DNA of 48,000 bases from Dolichospermum sp. DET69 (GCA_017355425.1 CP070233.1:5341272-5389271), one strand, 5' to 3'. Shown: positions 6,098-30,535, counted from the first letter of the stretch. The notes: generated by a model not told the origin, from the letters alone. Numbers and translations are program-made.

Positions 6098-6790
6098 ATG
6101 TTTATTTGGTTAACTTTGTGTGTAGTAGTGATTTTATTAGCTTACCTCTTTGGTTCTTTTCCGACTGGATATATTGCCGGGAAGCTATTAAAAGGAATTG
6201 ATATTCGAGAAGTTGGTTCTGGTTCAACAGGGGCAACTAATGTTCTGAGAACTTTAGGCAAAGGTCCTGGAGCATTTGTGTTATTAATTGATGCTTTCAA
6301 GGGAGTATTAGCAATAAATCTAGCTTATGCTTTATGTACTATTGAACCCGTTCAAAATTTAATTCCAGCAAATATCAATATTGAAATTTGGCAACCTTAT
6401 TTAGTCACATTAGCTGGATTTGCTGCCCTTTTAGGACATAGTAAATCAATCTTTCTTGGCTTTACAGGTGGTAAATCTGTGGCTACTGGTGTGGGAATTT
6501 TATTAGCTATAAGTTGGCAAGTAGGATTATCAACATTAGGGGTTTTTGCTGTCGTATTTGCCATTTCTAGAATTGTGTCTTTGAGTTCTATTGCTGGGGC
6601 TGTAGCGGTTTCTATTTTAATGGTAATTTTCCAGCAACCTTTAGCCTATATTCTTCTTGGTATTGCTGGTGGTTTATATGTCATTATCCGTCACCGCACT
6701 AATATTGAGCGATTAATTGCGGGTACAGAACCGAAAATTGGGCAGAAAGTAGAAACAGAAGAGAATTCAAACTTAACAATTCAAAATTAG
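6098..6790 (+). CDS. plsY: Glycerol-3-phosphate acyltransferase PlsY
   Basis: 230 aa polytopic protein with the PlsY signature FGSFPTGY ... GSGSTGATNVLRTLG ... LLGHSKSIFLGFTGGKSVATGVG. Confidence 0.9.
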   Translation: MFIWLTLCVVVILLAYLFGSFPTGYIAGKLLKGIDIREVGSGSTGATNVLRTLGKGPGAFVLLIDAFKGVLAINLAYALCTIEPVQNLIPANINIEIWQPYLVTLAGFAALLGHSKSIFLGFTGGKSVATGVGILLAISWQVGLSTLGVFAVVFAISRIVSLSSIAGAVAVSILMVIFQQPLAYILLGIAGGLYVIIRHRTNIERLIAGTEPKIGQKVETEENSNLTIQN

Positions 6791-6968
6791 CAGCTACAAC
6801 TTTACACTAAGAGAACTCCACAAAAAAATGAACTGCTTGCAGCAGCGCTAGTTCCCTCCGGGACGCTCTCGCGTTCGCTATCCAATGGTATCTTGCCCGT
6901 CCTTGTATTATTAGGGGACCAGATGCCCGCACTACAAGAAATTTTAGGATATTTTTTAAATTGGAAGT

Positions 6969-7428
6969 CTCTAAGAGGATGTTTTAAAAGTTTTCAAGGT
7001 ATAAATTAACCCCTCTGGTAAACCTCTCCCCTATAAGGAGAGAGGCTTTAAAATCCCCCTTCCCTTGTAGGGAAGGGGGGTCTGACAAGTGTAGGTTTTT
7101 TACATTGAGATTGATAATAGGGGCCAGACTTGGCAGACAAGGAGGGAAAGTGGACAAGGAGGAAGGAGAAAGAAGAATTAAAACCTATGAAGATAGGGAA
7201 CATATCGGGCAGAATTTTCCGGTTCTTTTTCTTCATACTCCCTTGTCTACTTTCCTTCCTTGTCTTCCAAGTCCAGCATAAAACCCAATTGTAAAAAACC
7301 TACACCTGTCAGGGAAGGGGGGTAGGGGGGTTAGGTTTTTGGAGATTATTGGTTTTATTTAATACTTTATGGCTAACGCCACGCTATGCCTTCGGCACAC
7401 TTCGTGAACGCTATCAAACACCCTCTAA
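6969..7428. mobile_element. MITE family A, copy 1 (TIR about CTAAGAGGATGTTTTAAAAG), carrying a nested second MITE
   Basis: Left end ctctaagaggatgttttaaaag at 6969; right end caaacaccctctaa ending at 7428, which is its imperfect inverse. The same element without the nested insert lies inverted at 45189-45428. A shorter relative lies at 37257-37429. Confidence 0.7.
7082..7312. mobile_element. Nested 231-bp hairpin MITE with about 24-bp TIRs and a duplicated target
   Basis: Left end ctgacaagtgtaggttttttaca, right end tgtaaaaaacctacacctgtcag (one mismatch). gggaaggggggt is present on both flanks (7070-7081 and 7313-7324). The uninterrupted site gggaaggggggcagggggg is visible in the paralogous copy near 45310 (reverse strand). 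The interior is a long imperfect palindrome. The 62-aa ORF at 7048-7236 lies inside it and is spurious. Confidence 0.75.
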
Positions 7429-7533
7429 CTGAGGAGGTTCATTGAACGCGGATAAACGCAGATAAAAATGTGTTAATCAATGGATTTTAGAATTCTGTGC
7501 AGTATGTTTAATCGCTAATGGGTGCAGGACTAA

Positions 7534-7569
7534 TAAAAAATTGTAGAGACGTTCAGGCTGAACGTCTCT
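7534..7569 (-). terminator. Rho-independent terminator of chlP
   Basis: On the minus strand, 15 nt after the chlP stop: agagacgttcag/ctgaacgtctct 12-bp stem followed by acaatttttta. Confidence 0.6.
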
Positions 7570-7583
7570 TAATTAAGATTCCA

Positions 7584-8804
7584 TTAGGGAGCTAAAGCGT
7601 TACCACGAATCAAACTACCAATGGTTTTGGCAGTAATTTTTAATTGGGTAAAGGGGTTAGCGGGAACTACAGTTTTATAAAGATAACTATCAAAAGTTAG
7701 CTTTTGTACATCCAAATCATCACACATTTCTACAAATGCTTCGCGGGTAGCATCGGAACGATAGAAGACGTTTTGGAGAATGTCTAATACTTTGTAGGTG
7801 AGTCCGTATTTCTTATCCCAACGCTTGATGTATACCTTGAGGTCGCCTTCTGTGGGAATCTGCGCCCCACCGTTAGCGGCTTCTACTATGGCTTCAGCAC
7901 ACATTCTACCAGATTTGGCGGCGAAATAAATACCTTCACCGGAGGACTTGGTAACATAACCAGCCGCATCTCCTACCAAGGCAATCCGTCCAACGACGCG
8001 ACGGGGACGGGGATGTTCAGGAATGGGGTGAGCTTCTACTCTAATGATTGTACCGCCGGCTAGTTTTTCGGCAGCACGGGCGCGAATACCTGCTTGTAAT
8101 TGTTTGATACTGGTTTTATTGACGTGCATTGTACCAGTACCTACTGCGACGTGATCATGTTTGGGGAATACCCAAGCGTAGAAGTCGGTAGAAACATCAT
8201 CGCCAACGTACATTTCGGCGAGTTCGTTGTAATAGGCCATTTTGTCTTCGGGAAGACGAATGCGTTCTTGGAAAGCGATCGCATAATTGTAATCCCCTGC
8301 ATCCATATCCTTAGCAATGCGGGAATTTGCCCCGTCAGCACCAACGATTAAATCCACCTTTAGGGTTTTAGTAACGCCCTGTACCCCTTCTCCTGAGTGG
8401 TCAACGTAATGGATTGTATAGGGGTCTTTATTGTTGCCAGGAATATCAACTTTATGAACGGTAGCGTTAATTAAATTTGTACCTAATTTTACCGCTCTGT
8501 CCCGCAAAAAGCCATCCAGCACTTCTCTACGGCACATTCCTATATATTCATCTTCATTTATCAAATTGATATCAACCTCACGATTAGAGGGAGAAATCAT
8601 TTTCATTTTCCGGACCCGACGGTCAATAATTTCTGGTGGTAAGTCAAACTCCTGCACCATGCACAGGGGAATAGCACCCCCACAAGGTTTGACGTTATCT
8701 AATTTTCGTTCAAACAAATAAGTTTCAATTCCAGCTTTAGCTAGTGTTTCAGCAGTGCATGAACCCGCAGGGCCAGAACCAACAACAGCAACCCGTAGTG
8801 TCAA
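7584..8804 (-). CDS. chlP: Geranylgeranyl diphosphate/chlorophyll reductase ChlP
   Basis: Very close to the remembered Synechocystis ChlP (LRVAVVGSGPAGS...AGIETYLFERKLDNVKPCGGAIPLCMV.EFDLPPEIIDRRVRKMKMISPSN...). The ORF is open to an ATG at 8900, but homology starts at (M)TLRVAVVG. I therefore place the start at the in-frame TTG at 8804-8802, giving 406 aa. Confidence 0.9.
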   Translation of the reverse strand: MTLRVAVVGSGPAGSCTAETLAKAGIETYLFERKLDNVKPCGGAIPLCMVQEFDLPPEIIDRRVRKMKMISPSNREVDINLINEDEYIGMCRREVLDGFLRDRAVKLGTNLINATVHKVDIPGNNKDPYTIHYVDHSGEGVQGVTKTLKVDLIVGADGANSRIAKDMDAGDYNYAIAFQERIRLPEDKMAYYNELAEMYVGDDVSTDFYAWVFPKHDHVAVGTGTMHVNKTSIKQLQAGIRARAAEKLAGGTIIRVEAHPIPEHPRPRRVVGRIALVGDAAGYVTKSSGEGIYFAAKSGRMCAEAIVEAANGGAQIPTEGDLKVYIKRWDKKYGLTYKVLDILQNVFYRSDATREAFVEMCDDLDVQKLTFDSYLYKTVVPANPFTQLKITAKTIGSLIRGNALAP

Positions 8805-9113
8805 AGGTTTTCTCCCAATTATAAATATTTTCCCAAAGTATCCTATCACGGACTTTTGTCCGAAATCCCGCTTACGGTTCAGGTTTTGACAGAAATACAA
8901 TATTCCTTAACATTTCGACATAAAAACTACATATTTTTGGATCTTATGCTAAGATAGTTTTGAGAAAAAGCGCGTAATCGTCATTGTTTCGCAAGTATAC
9001 TGATTTAAGCAAAATTATAATAATCCAAGCATAAATTAGTTTGGTGAATGCGGCTGAGATTTCACAAGATTATTAAAAACCTAAATTTGTAAGGTTTTAG
9101 CACTGCTGAACCC

Positions 9114-9200
9114 CTACTTATCTTCCTGCATACTTCTAACAATTTTTGTGACGATTTTTCTAGGAATAAACCTTACACATTTTGCCATCATTTTATTCAT
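9114..9200 (-). pseudogene. Orphan relic of the 3' end (last 28 codons plus stop) of an SDR gene homologous to the one at 16837-17628
   Basis: Minus strand reads ATGAATAAAATGATGGCAAAATGTGTAAGGTTTATTCCTAGAAAAATCGTCACAAAAATTGTTAGAAGTATGCAGGAAGATAAGTAG = MNKMMAKCVRFIPRKIVTKIVRSMQEDK*. The intact gene ends ...FMNKLMSKCVRFIPRKMVTKIVRSMQEDK* (16923-16837). 74 of 87 nt are identical, and the two copies have the same orientation. Confidence 0.8.
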
Positions 9201-9607
9201 AAAATTAAATTCTGTCATTATTATAATGTGAGGCGATGAGTCTAATTAGTAATTTGCTAACTATTCTTCACTTGTGATACACTCAACGAGAGTTAATCTG
9301 TAGCCTTTGCAATGAGAGTTAATCTATCGCGTTTGGCTACAGCGTGTAAATCTACTGAGAAATAACCGATCCCATCCTCCTGTTGAAGTAAAAAGTAAAG
9401 TCTAGTTTTGTCTAGGTTTTATATAGTAGCAAAACACCTTTTGGGAGAAATCTTAACTTACAGCACTTCCCGGTGTTATGAGGTACATATCTAGCTGGCA
9501 AGATGCCCGCATCACAAGAGTTTCATAATTCAACTTTGTACCTCATCTTCAGCGGAAAACGCTGTATATGTTTGTTGATTAATATTAGTTAGTAAAAAAG
9601 TATCGTC

Positions 9608-11359
9608 ATGGGATCTCACAAAAACGAAGAGAAGAAAGGAGAATATTCGATGTTCCAATGCGAAAAAGTTTTCCTAGAGCAGTTAGAACCCACGACATCA
9701 CTAGAATACCAGTGGGATTTAGTATTTGATGATGAACGAAGAGTTAGGTGGAAAGGTTTTTATACTGGACCTCTGACTTTGACCACTGAAAAAATTGCAG
9801 CACTGTGTCTAAAGCTTTTGGGGATAGACATCACAGAATTGCAAAAAGTAGCATCTCAGGAATTACAGCCTACTCCCCTCGGAAAGAATTGGCCAGCCCT
9901 AATCATGCACTCACAAACCCCCGATGTCAAATCCTTTGAACAAGATCTCCTCGATCTGATGAATGGTCCGACTCCTTTAGACCACACAACTTATGCTGAA
10001 GCTCGTTCCGCTTATTTTGCGCGACAACAGGATCTAGCGATTGGTCGTACTAACCCGTGGAAAACCGCAGTTGAATTGGAGAAGATTAATGCCATTGAAA
10101 TTCCGGGTATTGATTACTACTACCTTTCCCATGCGCTGCTGCTACTTGCTGAAGAGCATCTAATCTCACCCAGTTTAGAAATTAATCAGATCCTTGAGTT
10201 TTTGAGAAGCAACGAATATACGATTGTTCGCGTATATAACCTGGAGAAAGAGATGCAAATATTTCTTATCTGGCTAAAGCGCTTGGCAAATTTAGAAAAC
10301 CTATCTATAGACACCAATACTCCTGATGTAGCTCAATCTTGGAATCGCAAAAGTATACTCTATCCAACAGTTCGAGACGCACTGGCACTGGAAACAATTT
10401 TACTAAACCACTCCCCTCGACATATATTAGAGGTTGAATCACGTTCTTCACTTTTATATAAAAAACTAAACCTGACGATTCCCGTACTACCGGGCTATAC
10501 AATTGAACGTTCGGGAGAAGATATAGACTCTTTTGTTCAGCAAACAATTCAGGCCACAAGGTTGCTCAAGACAAGATATGGACTTGAACGCGCTTGTCTA
10601 AAAGCTTCCGAAGCAGCTGATGGCGCACGTATTTTTGCGGGTCTTGATCTCAGAGATGAATTGAAAATCGAGGATCTTGCCAAGGATGCTTATCAGCATG
10701 GAGATGACTATCTCCTCGAAGCACATATTGAATATCTGCAAGTTAACGTAGGTGGACAAATGCTGAAAACTACACCCTCTGCACATATCCGTTGGGGAGA
10801 GGTTGCAGAAGGTTTAACCCTGCAAATGACACAGGGAACTTCCTGGAAAGGTAATATTTATATCAACGAAGCAGTTGGGGATTTATTCGGAGTCTCCAAA
10901 GCACATTATCAGATTATTGCTGAAACAATGAACGATTTTCTATGTGCCTTTCAAAGTAAAAACCTTGGCTTAATGATTGCCGGCTTTGATTTCGCTATTG
11001 GTAGAATCGGGGGAGTATTTGAGGACGAGGTGCTGGTAGCCGCACAAGACCCGAATGTTTCTTTCAATGGTGCCGAATGTCTCAGAATCTTTAGAGAAAA
11101 GGTTAAGGATCACCACTTATGGACAGATGATCACTTTTATGCAGTTACCAGGGTGATACGTCCAACCCTTCAGGGCACACTCCCCGTTATTCGACAAATC
11201 ACTGATGTTGTTACTGATACAGAAACTTATGCCACCACGATTGCCTCAATTCCTGGTTGTTGGGGTATGATCGCGGTGGCAAATAGAGATCCTGAAGAAG
11301 TGCTCAAAAAGCTTTCTTCTCTTTATGATTCTTTGATTCGTCAGAATCTCATTACCTGA
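9608..11359 (+). CDS. Hypothetical 583-aa protein; the C-terminal half looks ATP-grasp-like (possible amide ligase)
   Basis: Long clean ORF with no recognisable N-terminal domain. The C-terminal half has a pattern reminiscent of ATP-grasp folds: LKASEAADGARIF ... YLLEAHIEY ... GFDFAIGRIGG..EVLVAAQDPNVSFNG (compare K-x-S, E-x-x-I and D-F-x...E-x-N). This is pattern recognition only. Confidence 0.35.
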   Translation: MGSHKNEEKKGEYSMFQCEKVFLEQLEPTTSLEYQWDLVFDDERRVRWKGFYTGPLTLTTEKIAALCLKLLGIDITELQKVASQELQPTPLGKNWPALIMHSQTPDVKSFEQDLLDLMNGPTPLDHTTYAEARSAYFARQQDLAIGRTNPWKTAVELEKINAIEIPGIDYYYLSHALLLLAEEHLISPSLEINQILEFLRSNEYTIVRVYNLEKEMQIFLIWLKRLANLENLSIDTNTPDVAQSWNRKSILYPTVRDALALETILLNHSPRHILEVESRSSLLYKKLNLTIPVLPGYTIERSGEDIDSFVQQTIQATRLLKTRYGLERACLKASEAADGARIFAGLDLRDELKIEDLAKDAYQHGDDYLLEAHIEYLQVNVGGQMLKTTPSAHIRWGEVAEGLTLQMTQGTSWKGNIYINEAVGDLFGVSKAHYQIIAETMNDFLCAFQSKNLGLMIAGFDFAIGRIGGVFEDEVLVAAQDPNVSFNGAECLRIFREKVKDHHLWTDDHFYAVTRVIRPTLQGTLPVIRQITDVVTDTETYATTIASIPGCWGMIAVANRDPEEVLKKLSSLYDSLIRQNLIT

Positions 11360-11408
11360 GTTTTCCATTCTTAATTAGGGTTTGCTGAATAAGTCTTTTC
11401 GTAAGGAC

Positions 11409-11452
11409 TAGGAGTCAGGAGTCACCGAGTCAGGAGTCACCGAGTCAGGAGG
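11409..11452. repeat. STRR-type heptamer tandem repeats (GGAGTCA / CCGAGTCA series)
   Basis: taggagtcaggagtcaccgagtcaggagtcaccgagtcaggagg. Related arrays lie at 47124-47154 (inverse), 47950-47985 and 42090-42105. Confidence 0.85.
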
Positions 11453-12266
11453 AATAAGGGACTTCCAAGAAATAAATTATCCCAATAAACGAACCACAGA
11501 GGCACAGAGAACACAGAGAGAGAATTTTTGCGTCAGTTTTGGGACATTTTTTTATTTGGAAGTCCCTAAAGAGGAGGAATAAAGAGGAGGAAGAAGAAGG
11601 AAGAGAAGGTTGGACAATTAGTCCTCAAATTTACGCGATTATTTTTGATGAAAATGCCAGGGTTTTAAACATCTATTGTCAATAATCTTGCACTTGTTTG
11701 GTTATAAAACCCTGCAAACCTTTATCTATCAACCCTTTTGCTTTCTTTTTTGCAAACCCTAATTAGACATCTCCAGAAAGGAAATACGCCTATCGTAGAA
11801 GCGGGTAGGAATTCTCGGATCTACATTTTTTTTGGAGGTGTCTATTGTATCCTACCTTCCGCACCCTAAACTGTCACACAACGAAAATTGGTTGTTTGGA
11901 GATTTGGTTTTAGCGAACTGCTTGCAGCAGCACTAGTTCCCTGCGGGACGCTCCGCGTAGTTTGCTTCCCGTAGGATACGCTATCGCCTGCCAATATTTT
12001 TTGATATTAGTATAAAATTTAATAATCATGGTTAATTTGTACAGTGTATAATTCCTAAAAATTTTCCTCATGACAAGATTCTTAAATCAATTTCTTTAAT
12101 ACAAAGTTCTCTCTGTGATATTATCAATCGTATGTTGTACTGTCTCAATATACCTACCATTTTTGAGCCTCGTAATCAATCAAATTTTCTTGGCTTTTAT
12201 ATGGTCATGTTATTTAAACCGTGTTACATTAATCAGTGAAAGACGCAATCCATAGTGTAGTTTAAG

Positions 12267-13259
12267 ATGATTCATGAATCAGTAGCAAGCTCTATAGGTC
12301 AAACACCCTTAGTATCTTTGTCTAGATTATTCCCCTATAAAAACATTAAAGTTATAGCAAAACTGGAGTTTTTAAATCCTGGAGGTAGTATTAAAGACCG
12401 TCCGGCTCGCTTTATTATTGAACAAGGGTTGCAGGATGGAAGCATTTCTAGAAAAACCCACCTAATTGAAAGTACGTCTGGGAACTTAGGTATTGCCTTG
12501 GCCATGCTGGCACGAGTCCACGAGCTTAAATTCACGTGTGTAGTAGATCCCAAAATATCAACAGTGAACTTACAGATGTTGAAGCTTTTGGGGGCTAATA
12601 TTGAGATGGTTGACACACCTGACAATCAAGGCGGCTATCTACAGTCTAGAATTAAACGGGTGCAGGAATTATTAAAGACCATTCCCCAAAGTTATTGGAT
12701 TAACCAGTATGCTAACGAACTTAACTGGAAGGCACATTACTATGGAACTGGCGCTGAAATTGTTTCCAGTCTAGACCACCCCATTGATTGTCTGATCATT
12801 GCTACCAGTACCACAGGAACACTATTGGGAGTGTCGAAACGTCTCCGTCAGGAGTTTCCTAACTTGCGAGTTGTTGCCGTGGATGCTGTGGGTTCGGTTA
12901 TTTTTGGGGCACAACCAGGCGCGAGGGAGATACCTGGCATTGGTGCAAGTCGGGTACCTGAACTTAGCAGTCAGCTTGAAGTAGATGAAGTTATCTACGT
13001 TAACGATAGAGAGTCCGCTTTGGGGTGTCGCGCTCTTCTTGAACATGAAGGTATTTTTGCTGGTGGTTCTTCAGGGTCAGTGATTGCCGCTATTCAGAAA
13101 CTCATCCCGACTTTGCCTTCTTCTTACCGTGTCCTCACTATTTTACCTGATCGAGGAGAACGGTACTTAAATTCAGTCTATGACGATAACTGGTTAATGC
13201 AATTGCCCACGCCACTAACAACGGCTAAACTACCTGATATGATCACCCAGATGGTCTAG
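12267..13259 (+). CDS. sbnA: SbnA-type PLP enzyme: N-(2-amino-2-carboxyethyl)-L-glutamate synthase (step 1 of L-2,3-diaminopropionate synthesis)
   Basis: 330 aa. Block-for-block similar to the remembered S. aureus SbnA: KLEFLNPGGSIKDRPA, HLIESTSGNLGIALAM, CVVDPKIS, YWINQYANELNW, PGIGASRVPE, EGIFAGGSSGS, ILPDRGERYL. Confidence 0.85.
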   Translation: MIHESVASSIGQTPLVSLSRLFPYKNIKVIAKLEFLNPGGSIKDRPARFIIEQGLQDGSISRKTHLIESTSGNLGIALAMLARVHELKFTCVVDPKISTVNLQMLKLLGANIEMVDTPDNQGGYLQSRIKRVQELLKTIPQSYWINQYANELNWKAHYYGTGAEIVSSLDHPIDCLIIATSTTGTLLGVSKRLRQEFPNLRVVAVDAVGSVIFGAQPGAREIPGIGASRVPELSSQLEVDEVIYVNDRESALGCRALLEHEGIFAGGSSGSVIAAIQKLIPTLPSSYRVLTILPDRGERYLNSVYDDNWLMQLPTPLTTAKLPDMITQMV

Positions 13260-13299
13260 TTTGCAAACGAATCTAGCACTTATCCCCAGCAAAAAAAAT

Positions 13300-14328
13300 A
13301 TGACCTCCCAACTTACACAACCGCCAAAGATTCTTTATCTGAGCAAATCAGACATTATTCAACTGTGCGGAAATTCTTCTCAGTTGTACATAGATGCAGT
13401 CAGCCATGCTCTTGTTCTTCATGCTGAGGGCAAAATTGTCCAACCCCTCAAGCCATATTTGCGCTGGCGCGGTGATGAAAATCATATTGCTGACCGGATA
13501 ATAGCCATGCCGGCCTATTTGGGTGGTGATAACCCAGTCGCTGGTTTAAAGTGGGTTGGAAGTAAGCATGATAATCCTTCTGTACACGGTATAGACCGAG
13601 CTAGTGCGATCATCATTCTGAATGACACCCAAACTCATTACCCAATTGCTATTCTTGAGGGCAGTCTAATCAGCGGTATGCGAACCGCGGCTGTTACTTC
13701 GGTAGCGGCTAAGTACCTAGCGCGAACAGGTTTTTCTCGTGTAACCTGCATTGGCTGTGGACCCATTGCCAAGATGCAACTATTGACAATTCTTGAGCAA
13801 TTCCCTTTAATTACTACCATTTATCTATTCGACCTCAACTCCCTCGCTGCTAAGAATTTAGTTCTTGAGCTAAACCAACACTTCCCAGGAGTAGAATACC
13901 ATATTGCAGCAACGGCAGAGGAAGCAGTGCGCCAGGGCGAGGTGGTTATAACCTGTACGGTTACGGACAAACCCTATATACCCTACGAATGGCTGCAAAA
14001 AGGAACTTTTGTGAGCAATATTTCCATTATGGACCTACACAAAGAGGTCTTCTTGAAAGCTGATAAGGTAGTAGTGGACGACTGGGAACAATCCAATCGT
14101 GAGAAGAAAATAATTAATCAGTTAGTAATTGAAGGGAGCTTTTCCCGCGAGCATCTACACGCGGAACTAGGTGAAATAATCCTTGGAAACCGATCAGGTC
14201 GGGAGTCAAATGAAGAAATCATCGTTCTTAATCCCATGGGAATGGCAATTGAAGATATGGCTTGTTCCCAAAGCATCTACGAGAAAGCCCTGGCTACGGG
14301 GGTTGGCTTTTGGTTGAATCTTGATTAA
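13300..14328 (+). CDS. sbnB: SbnB-type NAD-dependent ornithine-cyclodeaminase-family enzyme (step 2 of L-2,3-diaminopropionate synthesis)
   Basis: Matches the remembered S. aureus SbnA partner SbnB: VQPLKPYLR, HIADRIIAMP, GLKWVGSKHDNPS, SLISGMRTAAV, GEVVITCTVTDKPYIPYEWLQKGTFVSNISIMDLHKEVFLKADKVVVDDW, NREKKIINQLV, LNPMGMAIED. The track ORF opens at a TTG at 13261. I prefer the ATG at 13300 (MTSQLTQPPKILYLSKSDI), which aligns with the SbnB N-terminus. Confidence 0.85.
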   Translation: MTSQLTQPPKILYLSKSDIIQLCGNSSQLYIDAVSHALVLHAEGKIVQPLKPYLRWRGDENHIADRIIAMPAYLGGDNPVAGLKWVGSKHDNPSVHGIDRASAIIILNDTQTHYPIAILEGSLISGMRTAAVTSVAAKYLARTGFSRVTCIGCGPIAKMQLLTILEQFPLITTIYLFDLNSLAAKNLVLELNQHFPGVEYHIAATAEEAVRQGEVVITCTVTDKPYIPYEWLQKGTFVSNISIMDLHKEVFLKADKVVVDDWEQSNREKKIINQLVIEGSFSREHLHAELGEIILGNRSGRESNEEIIVLNPMGMAIEDMACSQSIYEKALATGVGFWLNLD

Positions 14329-14453
14329 GGGCAAATCACAAATTGGACAGGGAGATAATATTTAATATCAATGCAACGGGATACAAGTGTTGGCATTGTG
14401 TTATGTAAATCTCAATCAGTTGTATACTACTTGAATTTTAAAGGAGTTGTCAG

Positions 14454-15497
14454 GTGCTAAGTATTAATCAGTTACAGGAAAAGTCCTCAAATTTACAAGA
14501 TCGGAGTTGGCCTCCTGTCAACAAATTTCAGGGTTTCAGCGGTTTAATCAAAGACTTTCTTTATTTAGATGTAACTCAGCAATATGAAATATTAGCTAAA
14601 AGCAGGGATAACTCTGAAGAACATGGTAAATTTATTCACGAAAGTTTAGGATTAATTTATGCCTATGTACTCGGTTATGAAGATAGCCCTTGCTATATCA
14701 CGACCAATGAAGAATTAGAAATAAAATTACAGCAATTAAAGATTGTTTTAGAAAGAGAATTAATGAATTATTGGTTAGATATACCAGCAATTCCCCAACA
14801 GCTAAATCAGGGGGAAGCGGTTGATTATCTTAACAAAAAAATACTTGATAATTCCGGCGTTTACCATGAACTATTTGATTATATTGCGACAAAGGCCTCA
14901 AAAACGGCTGTTATAACTTTTTTACAAAATGAAGTCATCCGCAATGAGGTGGTTGATGATGAGGTAGCTTTACTGGTAAAGGGTTTACAAGGGCTACTAA
15001 AAAAGGTAGTTGCATCAAATCTTTGGGATGAGTGCGGTCGTGGCAAGCTTAATGATTTCCACACATATTGGTTAAGAATGTTGTTGGAAGAATTAAATGG
15101 TTGGAATCAACTATCTGATTATCGAAAACTAACGAGTCCCTGGTACGCTAAGATAACATCAAACTCATTTAATATGCTGTTGACACGTCCAGGATACAAA
15201 TATATGGCATATGGAGCTTTCTTGGTATTTGAAAGTTGGGTGCATCCACATTTTGAAAGAATTATTGCGGGTTTAAAAAGAGTTGGTATTGATCAGGAAG
15301 ATTTGAGTGTTTATTTTACTGCTCACCTAGCCATTGATCAATATCACACAAGAGAGTTACTTGCCGGTATAGCTAATCAAGAGCCGAGGTTAAATCAAGC
15401 AGAAGTTGACCAAATTCTTCTGGGATCACATTTAGCAATAGCAGCGGGAACAGCACAGTATGGGCGGATGTTGTCTTATCTTTCAACTCTCAAATAG
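14454..15497 (+). CDS. Heme-oxygenase-like diiron oxidase/oxygenase (HDO; iron-containing redox enzyme family)
   Basis: 347 aa, all-helical. Candidate six-ligand diiron set: E193-x9-H203 (WDECGRGKLNDFH), E260 (FESW) and H291-x3-D295-x2-H298 (HLAIDQYH). GTG start with AAGGAG 7 nt upstream (14441-14446). Confidence 0.6.
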   Translation: MLSINQLQEKSSNLQDRSWPPVNKFQGFSGLIKDFLYLDVTQQYEILAKSRDNSEEHGKFIHESLGLIYAYVLGYEDSPCYITTNEELEIKLQQLKIVLERELMNYWLDIPAIPQQLNQGEAVDYLNKKILDNSGVYHELFDYIATKASKTAVITFLQNEVIRNEVVDDEVALLVKGLQGLLKKVVASNLWDECGRGKLNDFHTYWLRMLLEELNGWNQLSDYRKLTSPWYAKITSNSFNMLLTRPGYKYMAYGAFLVFESWVHPHFERIIAGLKRVGIDQEDLSVYFTAHLAIDQYHTRELLAGIANQEPRLNQAEVDQILLGSHLAIAAGTAQYGRMLSYLSTLK

Positions 15498-15621
15498 TAA
15501 GCTGTTCGGAATTTAAACTGTATAACTTAAAACAAGTTTAATTATTGTGGGGTGGGACTCCTTACCCGCCCTGTTTATTTTGTACAACATTACCTCCAAA
15601 AGTCTTTGCCACAAAATCATT

Positions 15622-16593
15622 ATGACTAATACCGTGGAATTGCCAGAGCAACAGACAGATTTTAGATCCGATAAAATACAGATTATTTTATTGTTCGTAG
15701 CAGTATTTACTTTATCACTAGCAGCAATCTTAATCAAATTTAGCGAACAATATATTGGTCCTAATGCTACGATTTTCAATCGCTTCTGGATAGCCACTTT
15801 TATTCTAGGACTGTGGAAAGGTGGTAAATATTTAGCTTCTCAACTATTCCAAGATACTTCCAGTGTAAAAGAAAGTTATACAATATTCGATATATCACTA
15901 TTGGTGTTAACGGCTATCTTAATTTCACTTTCCCAGCTTTCCTGGGCTTGGTCTATAACTACAACAAGCGTTGCTAACGCGAATTTATTACATAATATGA
16001 CCCCAATTTTCACCATATTAGGGGGATGGCTGCTATTAAATTATTCCTTTAACAGTAAATTTCTCATCGGTATGGTTTTAGCTATAGGAGGAGCTATAAC
16101 TATTAGCATTCAAGATTTACAAATTTCTACAGATCATCTGAATGGTGATAGTTTAGCTTTACTATCTGCTATATTTTTTGGAGCTAACAATTTAGTGGTA
16201 GAAAAATTAAGAGTCAAGTTTTCGACAATAAGCATATTATTATGGTCTTGTTTTTTCCGAATATTTTTGACATTTCCAGTAGTGATATTAACTGAAGATA
16301 AAATTTTCCCATCTTCCTGGCAGGGATGGTTACCAGTCATCTTTCTAGCTATTTTCTGCCAAGTGATTGGTTCGGGGATTCTCTTCTATAGCCTCAAACA
16401 CTTCTCTTCAGGATTTATTTCTTTGTTCCTTCTGCTTGAGCCGATCATTGCTACAATTCTTGCATGGATCTTCTTTGGTGAAGATTTAAGTCTCCTAAAT
16501 GGGTTAGCTTTTATTGTAGTTTTAGTTGGTATATATGTCGCTAAATCTGCTCAAGAATCTGATGGTGAGGTTAACCCTCTTCCGTCAAAATAA
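15622..16593 (+). CDS. EamA/DMT-superfamily transporter (probable metabolite exporter)
   Basis: About 10 TM segments arranged as two EamA-like halves. The track ORF starts at a GTG at 15547. The ATG at 15622 (MTNTVELPEQQTDF...) just before the first TM helix is more plausible. Confidence 0.7.
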   Translation: MTNTVELPEQQTDFRSDKIQIILLFVAVFTLSLAAILIKFSEQYIGPNATIFNRFWIATFILGLWKGGKYLASQLFQDTSSVKESYTIFDISLLVLTAILISLSQLSWAWSITTTSVANANLLHNMTPIFTILGGWLLLNYSFNSKFLIGMVLAIGGAITISIQDLQISTDHLNGDSLALLSAIFFGANNLVVEKLRVKFSTISILLWSCFFRIFLTFPVVILTEDKIFPSSWQGWLPVIFLAIFCQVIGSGILFYSLKHFSSGFISLFLLLEPIIATILAWIFFGEDLSLLNGLAFIVVLVGIYVAKSAQESDGEVNPLPSK

Positions 16594-16836
16594 GTACCTG
16601 GAAAAAATTAATTACACAAACATCAGGGCTGAAATCCTTGACTGGTAAAGAATTGGTAAATAACTAATATGTAATTAATTCTGTCTAGGTACTTATGAAT
16701 CTGAATCGCAAAAATAATTGCCTAATTTCCAAATCCAGATGAAACATTAATAAATCGCCAAGAACTTTATGTGGCGTTAAAATTCGTTTTTATGACAAGG
16801 GGACAGGGAAGAGGTCTTGGGAGATTTTACTTTTTA

Positions 16837-17628
16837 TTACTTATCTTCTTGCATACTTCTGACAATTTTCGTCACCATTTTCCTAGGAATAAACCGCACA
16901 CATTTTGACATAAGTTTATTCATGAAACCAGGAATAATAATAGTTTTTCCTTTAATTAAAGCATCATAACCAATCTGTGCAACCGTTTCCGCATCCATCA
17001 TTTTTTTACCTTTAAGCATTTTAGAATCAGCCATGCCGCTTCTTTCATGAAATGCTGATACAGTAGAACCCGGACAAAGAACTGTTACAGTTACACCTGT
17101 ACCTTCTAATTCATTAGCGATCGCTTCTGAAAATGATAAAATATAGGCTTTAGTGGCAAAATACACTGCCATTAACGGACCTGGTTGAAATGCAGCCGCA
17201 GAAGCAACATTTAATATCTTGCCATGACCTTGTTTAACCATTTGTTTGAGAAATAACTTGGTTAAATGGGTTAAACAAACTAAATTTACCTGTAACATTT
17301 CCAGTTCGGTACTGAGGTTAGTTTCATTAAATAATCCATGATTTCCAAACCCGGCATTATTTACTAAAATATCAACCTTAATTCCAGCCTCTTGCAACTC
17401 TGTAAAAATTTCTTCTGGAGATGTGGATATAGATAAATCTTTGATAATAGGTTTAACAGAAACCCCAAACTCTTCTTGAAAATCAACAGCTATTTTCGTA
17501 AGTTTTTCACCTACCCTATCTACCAATACAAGATTGTAATTTTCACGAGCAAAAATCCGGGCTAACTGATAACCAATACCATTGGCTGAACCCGTAATTA
17601 AAACAGTTCCCTGACATTTTACGTTCAT
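16837..17628 (-). CDS. Classical short-chain dehydrogenase/ketoreductase occupying the hetN position of the HGL island
   Basis: 263 aa. TGSANGIGYQLA (TGxxxGxG), NNAG, S...YFATK (YxxxK). It lies directly downstream of hglB/hetM, as hetN does in Anabaena PCC 7120, but it has no RGSGR motif. Confidence 0.8.
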   Translation of the reverse strand: MNVKCQGTVLITGSANGIGYQLARIFARENYNLVLVDRVGEKLTKIAVDFQEEFGVSVKPIIKDLSISTSPEEIFTELQEAGIKVDILVNNAGFGNHGLFNETNLSTELEMLQVNLVCLTHLTKLFLKQMVKQGHGKILNVASAAAFQPGPLMAVYFATKAYILSFSEAIANELEGTGVTVTVLCPGSTVSAFHERSGMADSKMLKGKKMMDAETVAQIGYDALIKGKTIIIPGFMNKLMSKCVRFIPRKMVTKIVRSMQEDK

Positions 17629-27659: not shown

Positions 27660-27683
27660 AACTATGATTTTTGTGATTAAATA

Positions 27684-30535
27684 GTCGGAACTATGATTTA
27701 TGTAATTTGTTTGATTGGGATGATTAATTTGTCTGAACTGTGATTCTTGTGATTAGTTTGATTAAGATGATTTGATTTGTTAATCATCTCAATCACATAA
27801 ATCAAATTAATCATAGTTCAGAAATTATTCGTCTGAACTGTGATTCTTGTGATTAGTTTGATTAAGATGATTTGATTTGTTAATCATCTCAATCACATAA
27901 ATCAAATTAATCATAGTTCAGAAATTATTCGTCTGAACTGTGATTCTTGTGATTAGTTTGATTAAGATGATTTGATTTGTTAATCATCTCAATCACATAA
28001 ATCAAATTAATCATAGTTCAGAAATTATTCGTCGGAACTGTGATTCTTGTGATTAGTTTGATTAAGATGATTTGATTTGTTAATCATCTAAATCACATAA
28101 ATCAAATTAATCATAGTTCAGAAATTATTCGTCGGAACTGTGATTCTTGTAATTAGTTTGATTAAGATGATTTGATTTGTTAATCATCTCAATCACAAAA
28201 ATCAAATTAATCATAGTTCAGAAATTATTCGTCTGAACTGTGATTCTTGTGATTAGTTTGATTAAGATGATTTGATTTGTTAATCATCTCAATCACATAA
28301 ATCAAATTAATCATAGTTCAGAAATTATTCGTCGGAACTGTGATTCTTGTGATTAGTTTGATTAAGATGATTTGATTTGTTAATCATCTCAATCACATAA
28401 ATCAAATTAATCATAGTTCAGAAATTATTCGTCGGAACTGTGATTCTTGTGATTAGTTTGATTAAGATGATTTGATTTGTTAATCATCTCAATCACATAA
28501 ATCAAATTAATCATAGTTCAGAAATTATTAGTCTGAACTGTGATTCTTGTGATTAGTTTGATTAAGATGATTTGATTTGTTAATCATCTCAATCACATAA
28601 ATCAAATTAATCATAGTTCAGAAATTATTAGTCTGAACTGTGATTCTTGTGATTAGTTTGATTAAGATGATTTGATTTGTTAATCATCTCAATCACATAA
28701 ATCAAATTAATCATAGTTCAGAAATTATTAGTCTGAACTGTGATTCTTGTGATTAGTTTGATTAAGATGATTTGATTTGTTAATCATCTCAATCACATAA
28801 ATCAAATTAATCATAGTTCAGAAATTATTAGTCTGAACTGTGATTCTTGTGATTAGTTTGATTAAGATGATTTGATTTGTTAATCATCTCAATCACATAA
28901 ATCAAATTAATCATAGTTCAGAAATTATTCGTCGGAACTGTGATTCTTGTGATTAGTTTGATTAAGATGATTTGATTTGTTAATCATCTCAATCACATAA
29001 ATCAAATTAATCATAGTTCAGAAATTATTCGTCTGAACTGTGATTCTTGTGATTAGTTTGATTAAGATGATTTGATTTGTTAATCATCTCAATCACATAA
29101 ATCAAATTAATCATAGTTCAGAAATTATTCGTCTGAACTGTGATTCTTGTGATTAGTTTGATTAAGATGATTTGATTTGTTAATCATCTCAATCACAAAA
29201 ATCAAATTAATCATAGTTCAGAAATTATTCGTCGGAACTGTGATTCTTGTGATTAGTTTGATTAAGATGATTTGATTTGTTAATCATCTCAATCACATAA
29301 ATCAAATTAATCATAGTTCAGAAATTATTCGTCGGAACTGTGATTCTTGTGATTAGTTTGATTAAGATGATTTGATTTGTTAATCATCTAAATCACATAA
29401 ATCAAATTAATCATAGTTCAGAAATTATTCGTCGGAACTGTGATTCTTGTAATTAGTTTGATTAAGATGATTTGATTTGTTAATCATCTCAATCACAAAA
29501 ATCAAATTAATCATAGTTCAGAAATTATTCGTCGGAACTGTGATTCTTGTGATTAGTTTGATTAAGATGATTTGATTTGTTAATCATCTCAATCACATAA
29601 ATCAAATTAATCATAGTTCAGAAATTATTAGTCTGAACTGTGATTCTTGTGATTAGTTTGATTAAGATGATTTGATTTGTTAATCATCTCAATCACATAA
29701 ATCAAATTAATCATAGTTCAGAAATTATTAGTCTGAACTGTGATTCTTGTGATTAGTTTGATTAAGATGATTTGATTTGTTAATCATCTCAATCACATAA
29801 ATCAAATTAATCATAGTTCAGAAATTATTCGTCGGAACTGTGATTCTTGTGATTAGTTTGATTAAGATGATTTGATTTGTTAATCATCTTAATCACATAA
29901 ATCAAATTAATCATAGTTCAGAAATTATTCGTCTGAACTGTGATTCTTGTGATTAGTTTGATTAAGATGATTTGATTTGTTAATCATCTAAATCACATAA
30001 ATCAAATTAATCATAGTTCAGAAATTATTCGTCTGAACTGTGATTCTTGTGATTAGTTTGATTAAGATGATTTGATTTGTTAATCATCTTAATCACAAAA
30101 ATCAAATTAATCATAGTTCAGAAATTATTCGTCTGAACTGTGATTCTTGTGATTAGTTTGATTAAGATGATTTGATTTGTTAATCATCTCAATCACATAA
30201 ATCAAATTAATCATAGTTCAGAAATTATTCGTCGGAACTGTGATTCTTGTGATTAGTTTGATTAAGATGATTTGATTAATCACAAAAATCAGATAAATCA
30301 TAAAAATCATAGTTCAGAAATTATTCGTCTGAACTGTGATTCTTGTGATTAGTTTGATTCAGATGATTTGATTTGTTAATCATCTCAATCACATAAATCA
30401 AATTAATCAAATTAATCATAGTTCAGAAATTATTCGTCTGAACTGTGATTCTTGTGATTAGTTTGATTAAGATGATTTGATTTGTTAATCATCTTAATCA
30501 CATAAATCAAATTAATCATAGTTCAGAAATTATTC
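27684..30535. repeat. Tandem array: degenerate half-unit, then 25 units of exactly 100 bp, then three irregular units (96, 109 and 100 bp). Each unit is an imperfect palindrome.
   Basis: The consensus unit gtctgaactgtgattcttgtgattagtttgattaagatgatttgatttgttaatcatctcaatcacataaatcaaattaatcatagttcagaaattattc recurs in perfect 100-bp register from 27731 to 30230. Only 5 positions vary. There are stops in all six frames and no ORF of 60 aa or more. Confidence 0.97.

Follow-up and report, generated by a model that had tools for sequence, protein, structure and literature searches.

What do five adjacent, co-oriented genes make in a bloom-forming cyanobacterium, and do all five belong to one pathway? 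The question is raised by positions 9608-16593 of a 48-kb stretch of the Dolichospermum sp. DET69 genome (CP070233.1:5341272-5389271; 48,000 nucleotides, the whole of which is called the window below). A first-pass annotation, made from the sequence alone, had described this segment as an orphan islet for L-2,3-diaminopropionate (Dap), comprising an ATP-grasp-like protein, homologues of the staphyloferrin B enzymes SbnA and SbnB, a heme-oxygenase-like diiron oxidase (HDO) and an EamA-type exporter, and had suggested that the set yields an exported, oxidatively tailored and possibly ligated Dap-derived metabolite. Here we report that the unit conserved across bacterial phyla is the trio sbnA-sbnB-HDO, usually followed by a lactate-permease-like gene. 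The most likely function of the islet is Dap synthesis followed by N-oxygenation and export, with participation of the ligase uncertain; that its core is a self-contained cassette in which Dap is made, N-oxygenated and exported has, in our judgement, about an even chance of being correct.

Five open reading frames (ORFs), all on the plus strand and in the order ATP-grasp, sbnA, sbnB, HDO and eamA, lie exactly at the positions given. All five are real, and their family assignments hold:

9608..11359, plus strand: ATP-grasp-fold enzyme, putative carboxylate-amine ligase (AlphaFold model and Foldseek); probable start at ATG 9650
12267..13259, plus strand: sbnA (TIGR03945; match to Staphylococcus aureus SbnA, PDB 5d84)
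13261..14328, plus strand: sbnB, predicted NAD+-dependent conversion of N-(1-amino-1-carboxy-2-ethyl)-glutamic acid (ACEGA) to Dap and 2-oxoglutarate (TIGR03944; GenBank start at 13300)
14454..15497, plus strand: HDO of a discrete sbnAB-linked family, putative Dap N-oxygenase (PF14518, metal ligands, HrmI fold match)
15622..16593, plus strand: EamA/drug-metabolite transporter, putative exporter (two EamA domains; the mechanical ORF opens at GTG 15547)

For the ATP-grasp gene, ATG 9650 is the probable start, given that its homologues are 569-571 aa long and an AAGGAG motif lies upstream of this codon. GenBank calls sbnB from 13300 (342 aa) and eamA from 15622 (323 aa), and sbnA ends with its stop at 13259, directly before the opening of the sbnB ORF at 13261.

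It is established for the two biosynthetic families that SbnA converts O-phosphoserine and glutamate to ACEGA, from which SbnB forms L-Dap and 2-oxoglutarate. The window proteins score well above the NCBIfam equivalog cut-offs, with 424 bits against 350 for SbnA (TIGR03945) and 400 bits against 327 for SbnB (TIGR03944). In comparison with the S. aureus proteins, SbnA gives E=2e-126 and 59% identity (PDB 5d84), and SbnB gives E=6.5e-128 and 58% identity (PDB 4m54); the SbnA motif GGSxKDR, which carries the pyridoxal-phosphate lysine, reads GGSIKDRPA and aligns to GGSMKDRPA in S. aureus. Given this close homology to the S. aureus enzymes, the two window proteins presumably catalyze the same Dap chemistry. 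The first-pass assignment of this pair, which pointed to many blocks near-identical to the S. aureus proteins, is thus borne out at E-values of about 1e-126 to 1e-128. The annotation had likewise placed a diiron oxidase and an exporter immediately downstream in the same orientation, and both are found there.

The diiron protein matches PF14518 (Haem_oxygenas_2) with 105 bits against a cut-off of 28.9. Its 3-His/3-carboxylate ligands, E193, H203, E260, H291, D295 and H298, are invariant in 23 sequences and align to those of HrmI, an enzyme that turns lysine's side-chain amine into a nitro group by oxidation via an N-hydroxy intermediate, with the amine coordinated to iron. When the family profile was compared with the PDB, the only matches at E<=1 were the N-oxygenases HrmI (8e-19), RohS and SznF. 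The AlphaFold2 model (pLDDT 92.2) consists of helices throughout and finds its matches among HDO structures, the best of which is again HrmI (E=6e-10, TM 0.67); the next match is about 6000-fold weaker by E-value, and FlcD, RohS, CADD, SznF, BesC, PolF and UndA all rank well behind. The family is also sharply bounded, as a search of 1.84 billion representatives returned 37 at E<=1e-30, beyond which the full-length matches were only distant HDOs at no more than 28% identity. By analogy with HrmI, we regard this protein as a putative Dap N-oxygenase that would act at the beta nitrogen, and our confidence in N-beta-oxygenation is moderate only, because HDO chemistry is unpredictable from ligands or fold.

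Genomic context links this oxygenase family to Dap synthesis. One genome per species was scanned with an alignment of the HDO family, which gave 70 loci, and their neighbours were identified by tblastn with the window proteins. SbnA-like and SbnB-like genes are both adjacent to the HDO gene, usually directly upstream, at about 36 of the 70 loci, and the HDO loci are distributed over Cyanobacteria, Myxococcota, Pseudomonadota, Actinomycetota, Chloroflexota and Fibrobacterota. The neighbours at L011, L012, L015, L018, L025 and L068 (loci are cited by such numbers where they must be told apart) all pass both the SbnA and the SbnB equivalog cut-offs, the genera concerned being Pseudomonas, Sorangium, Kitasatospora, Crocosphaera, Crinalium and Thiodubiliella; in Nostochopsis (L024), where SbnB alone was tested, it passes as well. 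Apart from the lactate-permease-like gene, the genes that flank the trio are not conserved. HDO identity is 47-55% throughout the cassette loci, and the window SbnA and SbnB are closer to the S. aureus proteins (59% and 58%) than to most other HDO-linked ones (about 40% and 30%). Two SbnB lineages are found with the same HDO family, namely a staphylococcal type that is 58-59% identical to S. aureus SbnB and occurs in the window, Crocosphaera and Crinalium, and another that is about 30% identical. The association of two divergent Dap-synthase lineages with one HDO family points to functional coupling rather than shared descent, and argues for an HDO that needs Dap or the SbnA product.

A separate group of HDO loci (L048-L052, L054, L056, L059 and L061, from Streptomyces rimosus, S. 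monomycini and others) carries an SbnA-like gene followed by the HDO gene, without SbnB. The recurrent neighbours in this group encode a flavin amine oxidase, a class-III aminotransferase and GMC oxidoreductases, and the SbnA-like protein of L059, the sole one tested, passes TIGR03945. These loci may represent a second pathway type in which SbnB has been replaced.

The last gene of the islet encodes a protein that matches PF00892 on two stretches with 124.5 bits. A lactate-permease-like gene lies directly after the HDO gene in 22 loci. The other cassettes examined in cyanobacteria (L011, L015, L024 and L115) all have it. The trio in the window is without this gene, and eamA occupies its place. 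Since the usual permease is missing and the trio sits beside a resident transporter, EamA probably exports the product.

The first gene of the islet was the least recognizable by sequence. The 583-aa protein has no Pfam or NCBIfam match at E<=0.01, including no ATP-grasp or PGM1 model, and neither the protein nor its family profile gave anything but noise in sequence comparisons with the PDB, with no ATP-grasp chain among the matches. An AlphaFold model built from 39 homologues (pLDDT 93.6) was matched by Foldseek to ATP-grasp enzymes with E of about 1e-11, probability 1.0, 480-590 alignment columns and a target-normalised TM of about 0.6, the top matches being PurK, biotin carboxylase, the peptide ligases 8ynq and PGM1 (3wvq), DcsG and BacD. 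On this confident model the protein is an ATP-grasp enzyme by predicted fold. The earlier description of an ATP-grasp-like C-terminus was thus right as to the family and too narrow as to the extent, as the fold match spans most of the length. K318, E357, D467 and N469 are invariant in the family and are plausible candidates for ATP/Mg2+ binding. Its homologues, of about 570 aa, number 107 and stem from cyanobacteria, Bacteroidota, Acidobacteriota, Streptomyces and Vibrio; all lack a functional name, the named ones being recorded as 'hypothetical protein' or 'Uncharacterized protein'. Its commonest neighbour, at 13 of 42 loci, is a DAO flavoprotein of about 600-725 aa, and the DAO-bearing loci often also have a 339-aa protein lacking a Pfam domain and sometimes a methyltransferase or GNAT gene. 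None of the usual partners of the family, i.e. DAO, the 339-aa and 413-aa proteins, GNAT and methyltransferase, is encoded in the window.

Two other settings of the ATP-grasp family were observed in passing. The combination of ATP-grasp and DAO genes at L001, L005-L007, L083-L088, L091 and L094 forms an uncharacterised module distinct from the Dap cassette. In Vibrio ruber (CP134780; L003, positions 6140-15294), an ATP-grasp homologue lies inside a different putative biosynthetic operon that encodes a TenA/HDO-like protein, an aminotransferase, a Lys/Orn N-monooxygenase-like flavoprotein, TauD, the ATP-grasp protein, a kinase and an ABC exporter.

The relation between the outer pair of genes and the inner trio can be read from the layout of related loci. 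In another cyanobacterium (L005) the gene order is methyltransferase, ATP-grasp, EamA and DAO, with the EamA gene directly after the ATP-grasp gene; both proteins are 78% identical to their window counterparts. Nucleotide comparison (blastn) of the window with L005 gives matches only at 9623-11379 and 15600-16563, which places the 4.2-kb sbnA-sbnB-HDO stretch inside an ATP-grasp/EamA pair, so that the trio looks as if it had been inserted between two genes that were already neighbours. The genome record of the window itself (L113) preserves all five genes in order, as do L081 at 99% identity and L009 and L010 at about 88%. In L114 (about 80%) the ATP-grasp gene and the trio are kept, and the contig ends about 1 kb past the HDO gene with no eamA called. 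The layout is confined to these close relatives at 79-99% identity. Outside the lineage of the window, none of the 70 HDO genome loci has the ATP-grasp gene or an EamA gene of the window type, and no ATP-grasp locus has the trio; one of the latter, L008, has a distant SbnB-like OCD (ornithine cyclodeaminase) gene about 6 kb away. The proposal that the five genes form one conserved unit is therefore not borne out, and the conserved part is the trio. The other features that bear on the history of the islet are as follows:

9115..9204, minus strand: remnant copy of the 3' end of a short-chain dehydrogenase/reductase (SDR) gene, 90 nt, left arm of a direct repeat (87% identity to 16838-16927)
11379..11759, no strand assigned: insertion of 381 nt resembling a miniature inverted-repeat transposable element (MITE), between the ATP-grasp gene and sbnA; absent from L081
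15547..15574, plus strand: GC-rich, terminator-like hairpin with a T-run after it, downstream of the HDO stop and ahead of the eamA start (consensus scan, weak)
16838..16927, minus strand: right arm of the direct repeat, formed by the 3' end of the intact SDR gene (16837-17628)

The ATP-grasp gene and sbnA are separated by a gap of 908 nt in the window and of about 320 nt in the 99%-identical metagenome contig L081. The MITE-like element in this gap has terminal inverted repeats GGTTTGC/GCAAACC and is flanked by a 7-nt duplication, TAATTAG, at 11372-11378 and 11760-11766; the 908-nt gap before sbnA is recent. The element itself holds short tandem heptamer-like and purine-rich repeats, and a second indel relative to L081 lies about 100 nt past it, at about 11862-12060.

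The 90-nt direct repeat brackets the 7.6-kb islet. A 34-aa ORF at 9114-9218 on the minus strand matches the C-terminus of the SDR protein, the left copy of the repeat encoding its last 29 codons and the stop. The repeat resembles a scar left where sequence was inserted or duplicated at the SDR gene's 3' end. No integrase is present, and an exact look-up of the SDR protein for an empty site returned islet-bearing contigs only. Two further repeats were noted at the islet borders, a tandem 26-nt repeat in two copies (85% identical, 9284-9335) upstream of the ATP-grasp gene, and an inverted repeat at 16590-16696 between the eamA and SDR stops with 27-nt arms (89% complementary) and a 53-nt spacer.

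Several points weigh against the N-oxygenation of free Dap and its export by EamA. At about 16 of the 70 HDO loci an SbnA-like gene stands without SbnB, which brings the loci with at least an SbnA-like gene to about 52, and at about 18 neither gene occurs within the fetched flanks; because of these loci, the substrate of HDO could be ACEGA or another amine and not free Dap. The window HDO is only 20-21% identical to HrmI, below the level of orthologues, and the function of its family is a putative one, predicted from sequence and fold neighbours. A 2026 review of HDOs describes how the same ligands and similar substrates go with very different chemistry, as in HrmI versus BesC. Downstream, the terminator-like hairpin separates the HDO gene from eamA; it lies in 15500-15584, a stretch that does not align with L009 or L005, and is weak evidence, the scan having found 8 such sites against 6.4 expected. 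The role of EamA in export is deduced from the position of its gene only. An HDO that performs other chemistry on Dap or ACEGA, such as the C-C cleavage, desaturation, C-N ring closure or rearrangement represented by BesC, UndA, PolF and AetD, would suit the poor predictive value of ligands and fold and the loci that pair HDO with an SbnA-like gene without SbnB, including L059 with its SbnA above the cut-off. We nevertheless hold it to be unlikely, as the sequence profile retrieves N-oxygenases exclusively at E<=1, and BesC, PolF and UndA rank far below HrmI, the best fold match by about four orders of magnitude. A pathway that uses all five genes, in which HDO oxidises the Dap that is made, the ATP-grasp enzyme ligates it to a partner or closes it into a ring, and EamA exports the result, draws on the gene order kept among the close relatives, on a gap of only about 320 nt between the ATP-grasp gene and sbnA before the MITE insertion, on a trio that would depend on the resident exporter for want of its own permease, and on structural neighbours of the ATP-grasp protein that include amino-acid and peptide ligases (8ynq, PGM1, BacD) as well as the cyclase DcsG. 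It appears rather doubtful in view of the complete absence of the outer genes from HDO loci, and of the trio from ATP-grasp loci, beyond this lineage, the lack of the customary DAO flavoprotein in the window, and a layout that resembles insertion into a gene pair already in place.

Two further explanations have been attached to SbnA and SbnB in cyanobacteria. As staphyloferrin B enzymes, they would fit a siderophore or metallophore module with Dap as building block, or with N-hydroxy-Dap acylated to a hydroxamate, and a cyanobacterial genome survey (Mantas et al. 2022), as cited in PMC9414260, suggested such a role. The 48-kb window has 25 ORFs of 150 aa or more, and none of them encodes a nonribosomal peptide synthetase (NRPS), an NRPS-independent siderophore (NIS) synthetase of the IucA/IucC type, or a methyltransferase, in agreement with the first-pass statement that known consumers of Dap are missing. 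The only ABC ATPase, HlyD and FtsX genes in the window belong to the neighbouring set of heterocyst-glycolipid (hgl) type, and no TonB receptor or uptake-type neighbour recurs elsewhere among the selected neighbour families that were annotated, which leaves a siderophore function improbable. [quoted passage not shown] The annotation had already remarked on the lack of a methyltransferase, which the window ORFs confirm; the link to BMAA itself fails to gain support, as the conserved neighbour of sbnAB is an oxidase, not a methylase, and no methyltransferase occurs among the annotated recurrent neighbour families in other genomes. We consider a role in BMAA supply highly improbable. With methyltransferase, NRPS and siderophore synthetase all absent, the BMAA and siderophore readings are both unsupported.

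Synthesis and N-oxygenation of Dap followed by export thus remains the preferred reading. SbnA and SbnB would make L-Dap from O-phosphoserine and glutamate through ACEGA. The HrmI-like HDO would then use O2 to oxidise Dap, with the beta-amino nitrogen as the most likely site, giving N3-hydroxy-Dap and, on further oxidation, 3-nitroso- or 3-nitro-alanine. The small polar product would probably be exported by EamA in place of the lactate-permease-like transporter, and the ATP-grasp enzyme may form an amide bond on this product or close it into a ring, or may be an unrelated neighbour.

Several known systems resemble this scheme in part. As in the staphyloferrin B locus of S. aureus, SbnA and SbnB are encoded by an adjacent pair of genes, with the identities given above; unlike that locus, the window has no SbnC, SbnE or SbnF NIS synthetases or other sbn genes, and a diiron oxidase follows instead. 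HrmI and BelK, the L-lysine N6-oxygenases of 6-nitronorleucine formation, are the closest by sequence, fold and ligand pattern and act on the terminal amine of a diamino acid, much as proposed here for Dap, whereas the identity is low and the window has no gene for an iron/2-oxoglutarate-dependent enzyme, such as the HrmJ/BelL cyclopropanase. The partnership of HDO with a Dap synthase implies a C3 rather than a C6 substrate. In the L-alanosine (ala/aln) cluster of Streptomyces alanosinicus, SbnA and SbnB homologues likewise make Dap, and its beta nitrogen is then N-oxygenated; there, however, Dap is thought to be tethered to an NRPS, the hydroxylation is ascribed to a flavin enzyme and nitrite-forming CreE/CreD homologues are encoded, none of which is found here, and no HDO has been described in that cluster. 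The ATP-grasp ligases PGM1, BacD and 8ynq and the cyclase DcsG share the overall fold of the 583-aa protein, which differs from them in having no sequence-model match and in being longer (569 aa versus roughly 300-490 for most).

The islet is set between upstream housekeeping genes (DUF3086, plsY and geranylgeranyl reductase) and, downstream on the opposite strand, a polyketide synthase (PKS) set that begins with the SDR gene and continues with an ACP-thioester reductase, a PfaD-type enoyl reductase and several ketosynthase proteins, followed by HlyD/FtsX genes and glycosyltransferases. From its domain content, this set appears to be an hgl island. The clusters at 90% identity that contain the ATP-grasp and HDO proteins of the window have members from Aphanizomenon flos-aquae UKL13-PB, Anabaena sp. 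AL93 and Dolichospermum sp. DET50, DET66 and JUN01, which belong to the bloom-forming Anabaena/Dolichospermum/Aphanizomenon (ADA) clade. GC content gives no foreign signature (0.39-0.42 in the islet, 0.35-0.43 in the flanks). An Rfam scan of the islet gave a sub-threshold L20-leader match only, with no riboswitch in the 908-nt gap; neither promoter region has an NtcA site (GTAN8TAC), the window-wide count of which is at chance level; and promoter and terminator scans returned numbers near the shuffled expectation, which are weak hints only. Elsewhere in the window, a HEARO RNA (HNH endonuclease-associated RNA and ORF; Rfam RF02033) lies at 1080-1343 on the minus strand, with 102 bits against a gathering score of 83 and E=6e-20, and its partner ORF would extend past the window start. 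A 2.9-kb stretch without an ORF of at least 50 aa, with GC of about 0.26-0.29, lies at 27660-30530 between two hgl-type PKS genes.

The statement that the islet matches no described pathway still holds, since staphyloferrin B, HrmI/BelK and alanosine all differ from it and the literature gave no match. Our literature search found no paper joining SbnA, SbnB and 'heme oxygenase-like', and searches on OCD with HDO, HrmI with Dap, nitroalanine, and SbnA with the ADA genera found nothing describing the cassette. A review on N-N bonds was the one paper found to mention both Dap and HDOs, with Dap only under alanosine; the text of the 2026 HDO review, which covers about 12 characterised HDOs, is without mention of Dap, and two genome-mining papers on the ADA clade mention neither Dap nor Sbn nor BMAA. 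Published discussion of cyanobacterial SbnA and SbnB concerns BMAA or siderophores. The parts of the system come from known families; their combination matches none of these systems and makes up a widespread, compact cassette, joined here to a ligase-exporter pair in a lineage-specific fusion.

Somewhat more tentatively, we propose that sbnA-sbnB-HDO(-permease) may be a widespread and undescribed route whose product is a three-carbon, N-oxygenated amino acid, for instance N3-hydroxy-Dap or 3-nitroalanine, and that in the ADA clade the cassette would be wired to an ATP-grasp enzyme and an exporter. Because the substrate supply is encoded next door, the function of the HDO family is directly testable with three genes, and the family could extend the small set of HDOs with a known reaction. 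If the proposal is true, a Dap-specific N-oxygenase would constitute a new route to nitro or N-hydroxy amino acids, common to Pseudomonas, Streptomyces, myxobacteria, marine symbionts and cyanobacteria, and 3-nitroalanine formed in this way could release nitrite by beta-elimination. The ADA combination could then give rise to a secreted allelochemical or toxin that is new, such as a hydroxamate derived from Dap, an N-hydroxy-beta-lactam or an isoxazolidinone. Dap in the ADA bloom formers most likely serves as an intermediate that undergoes oxidation and not methylation, which redirects the discussion of BMAA and siderophores in these cyanobacteria.

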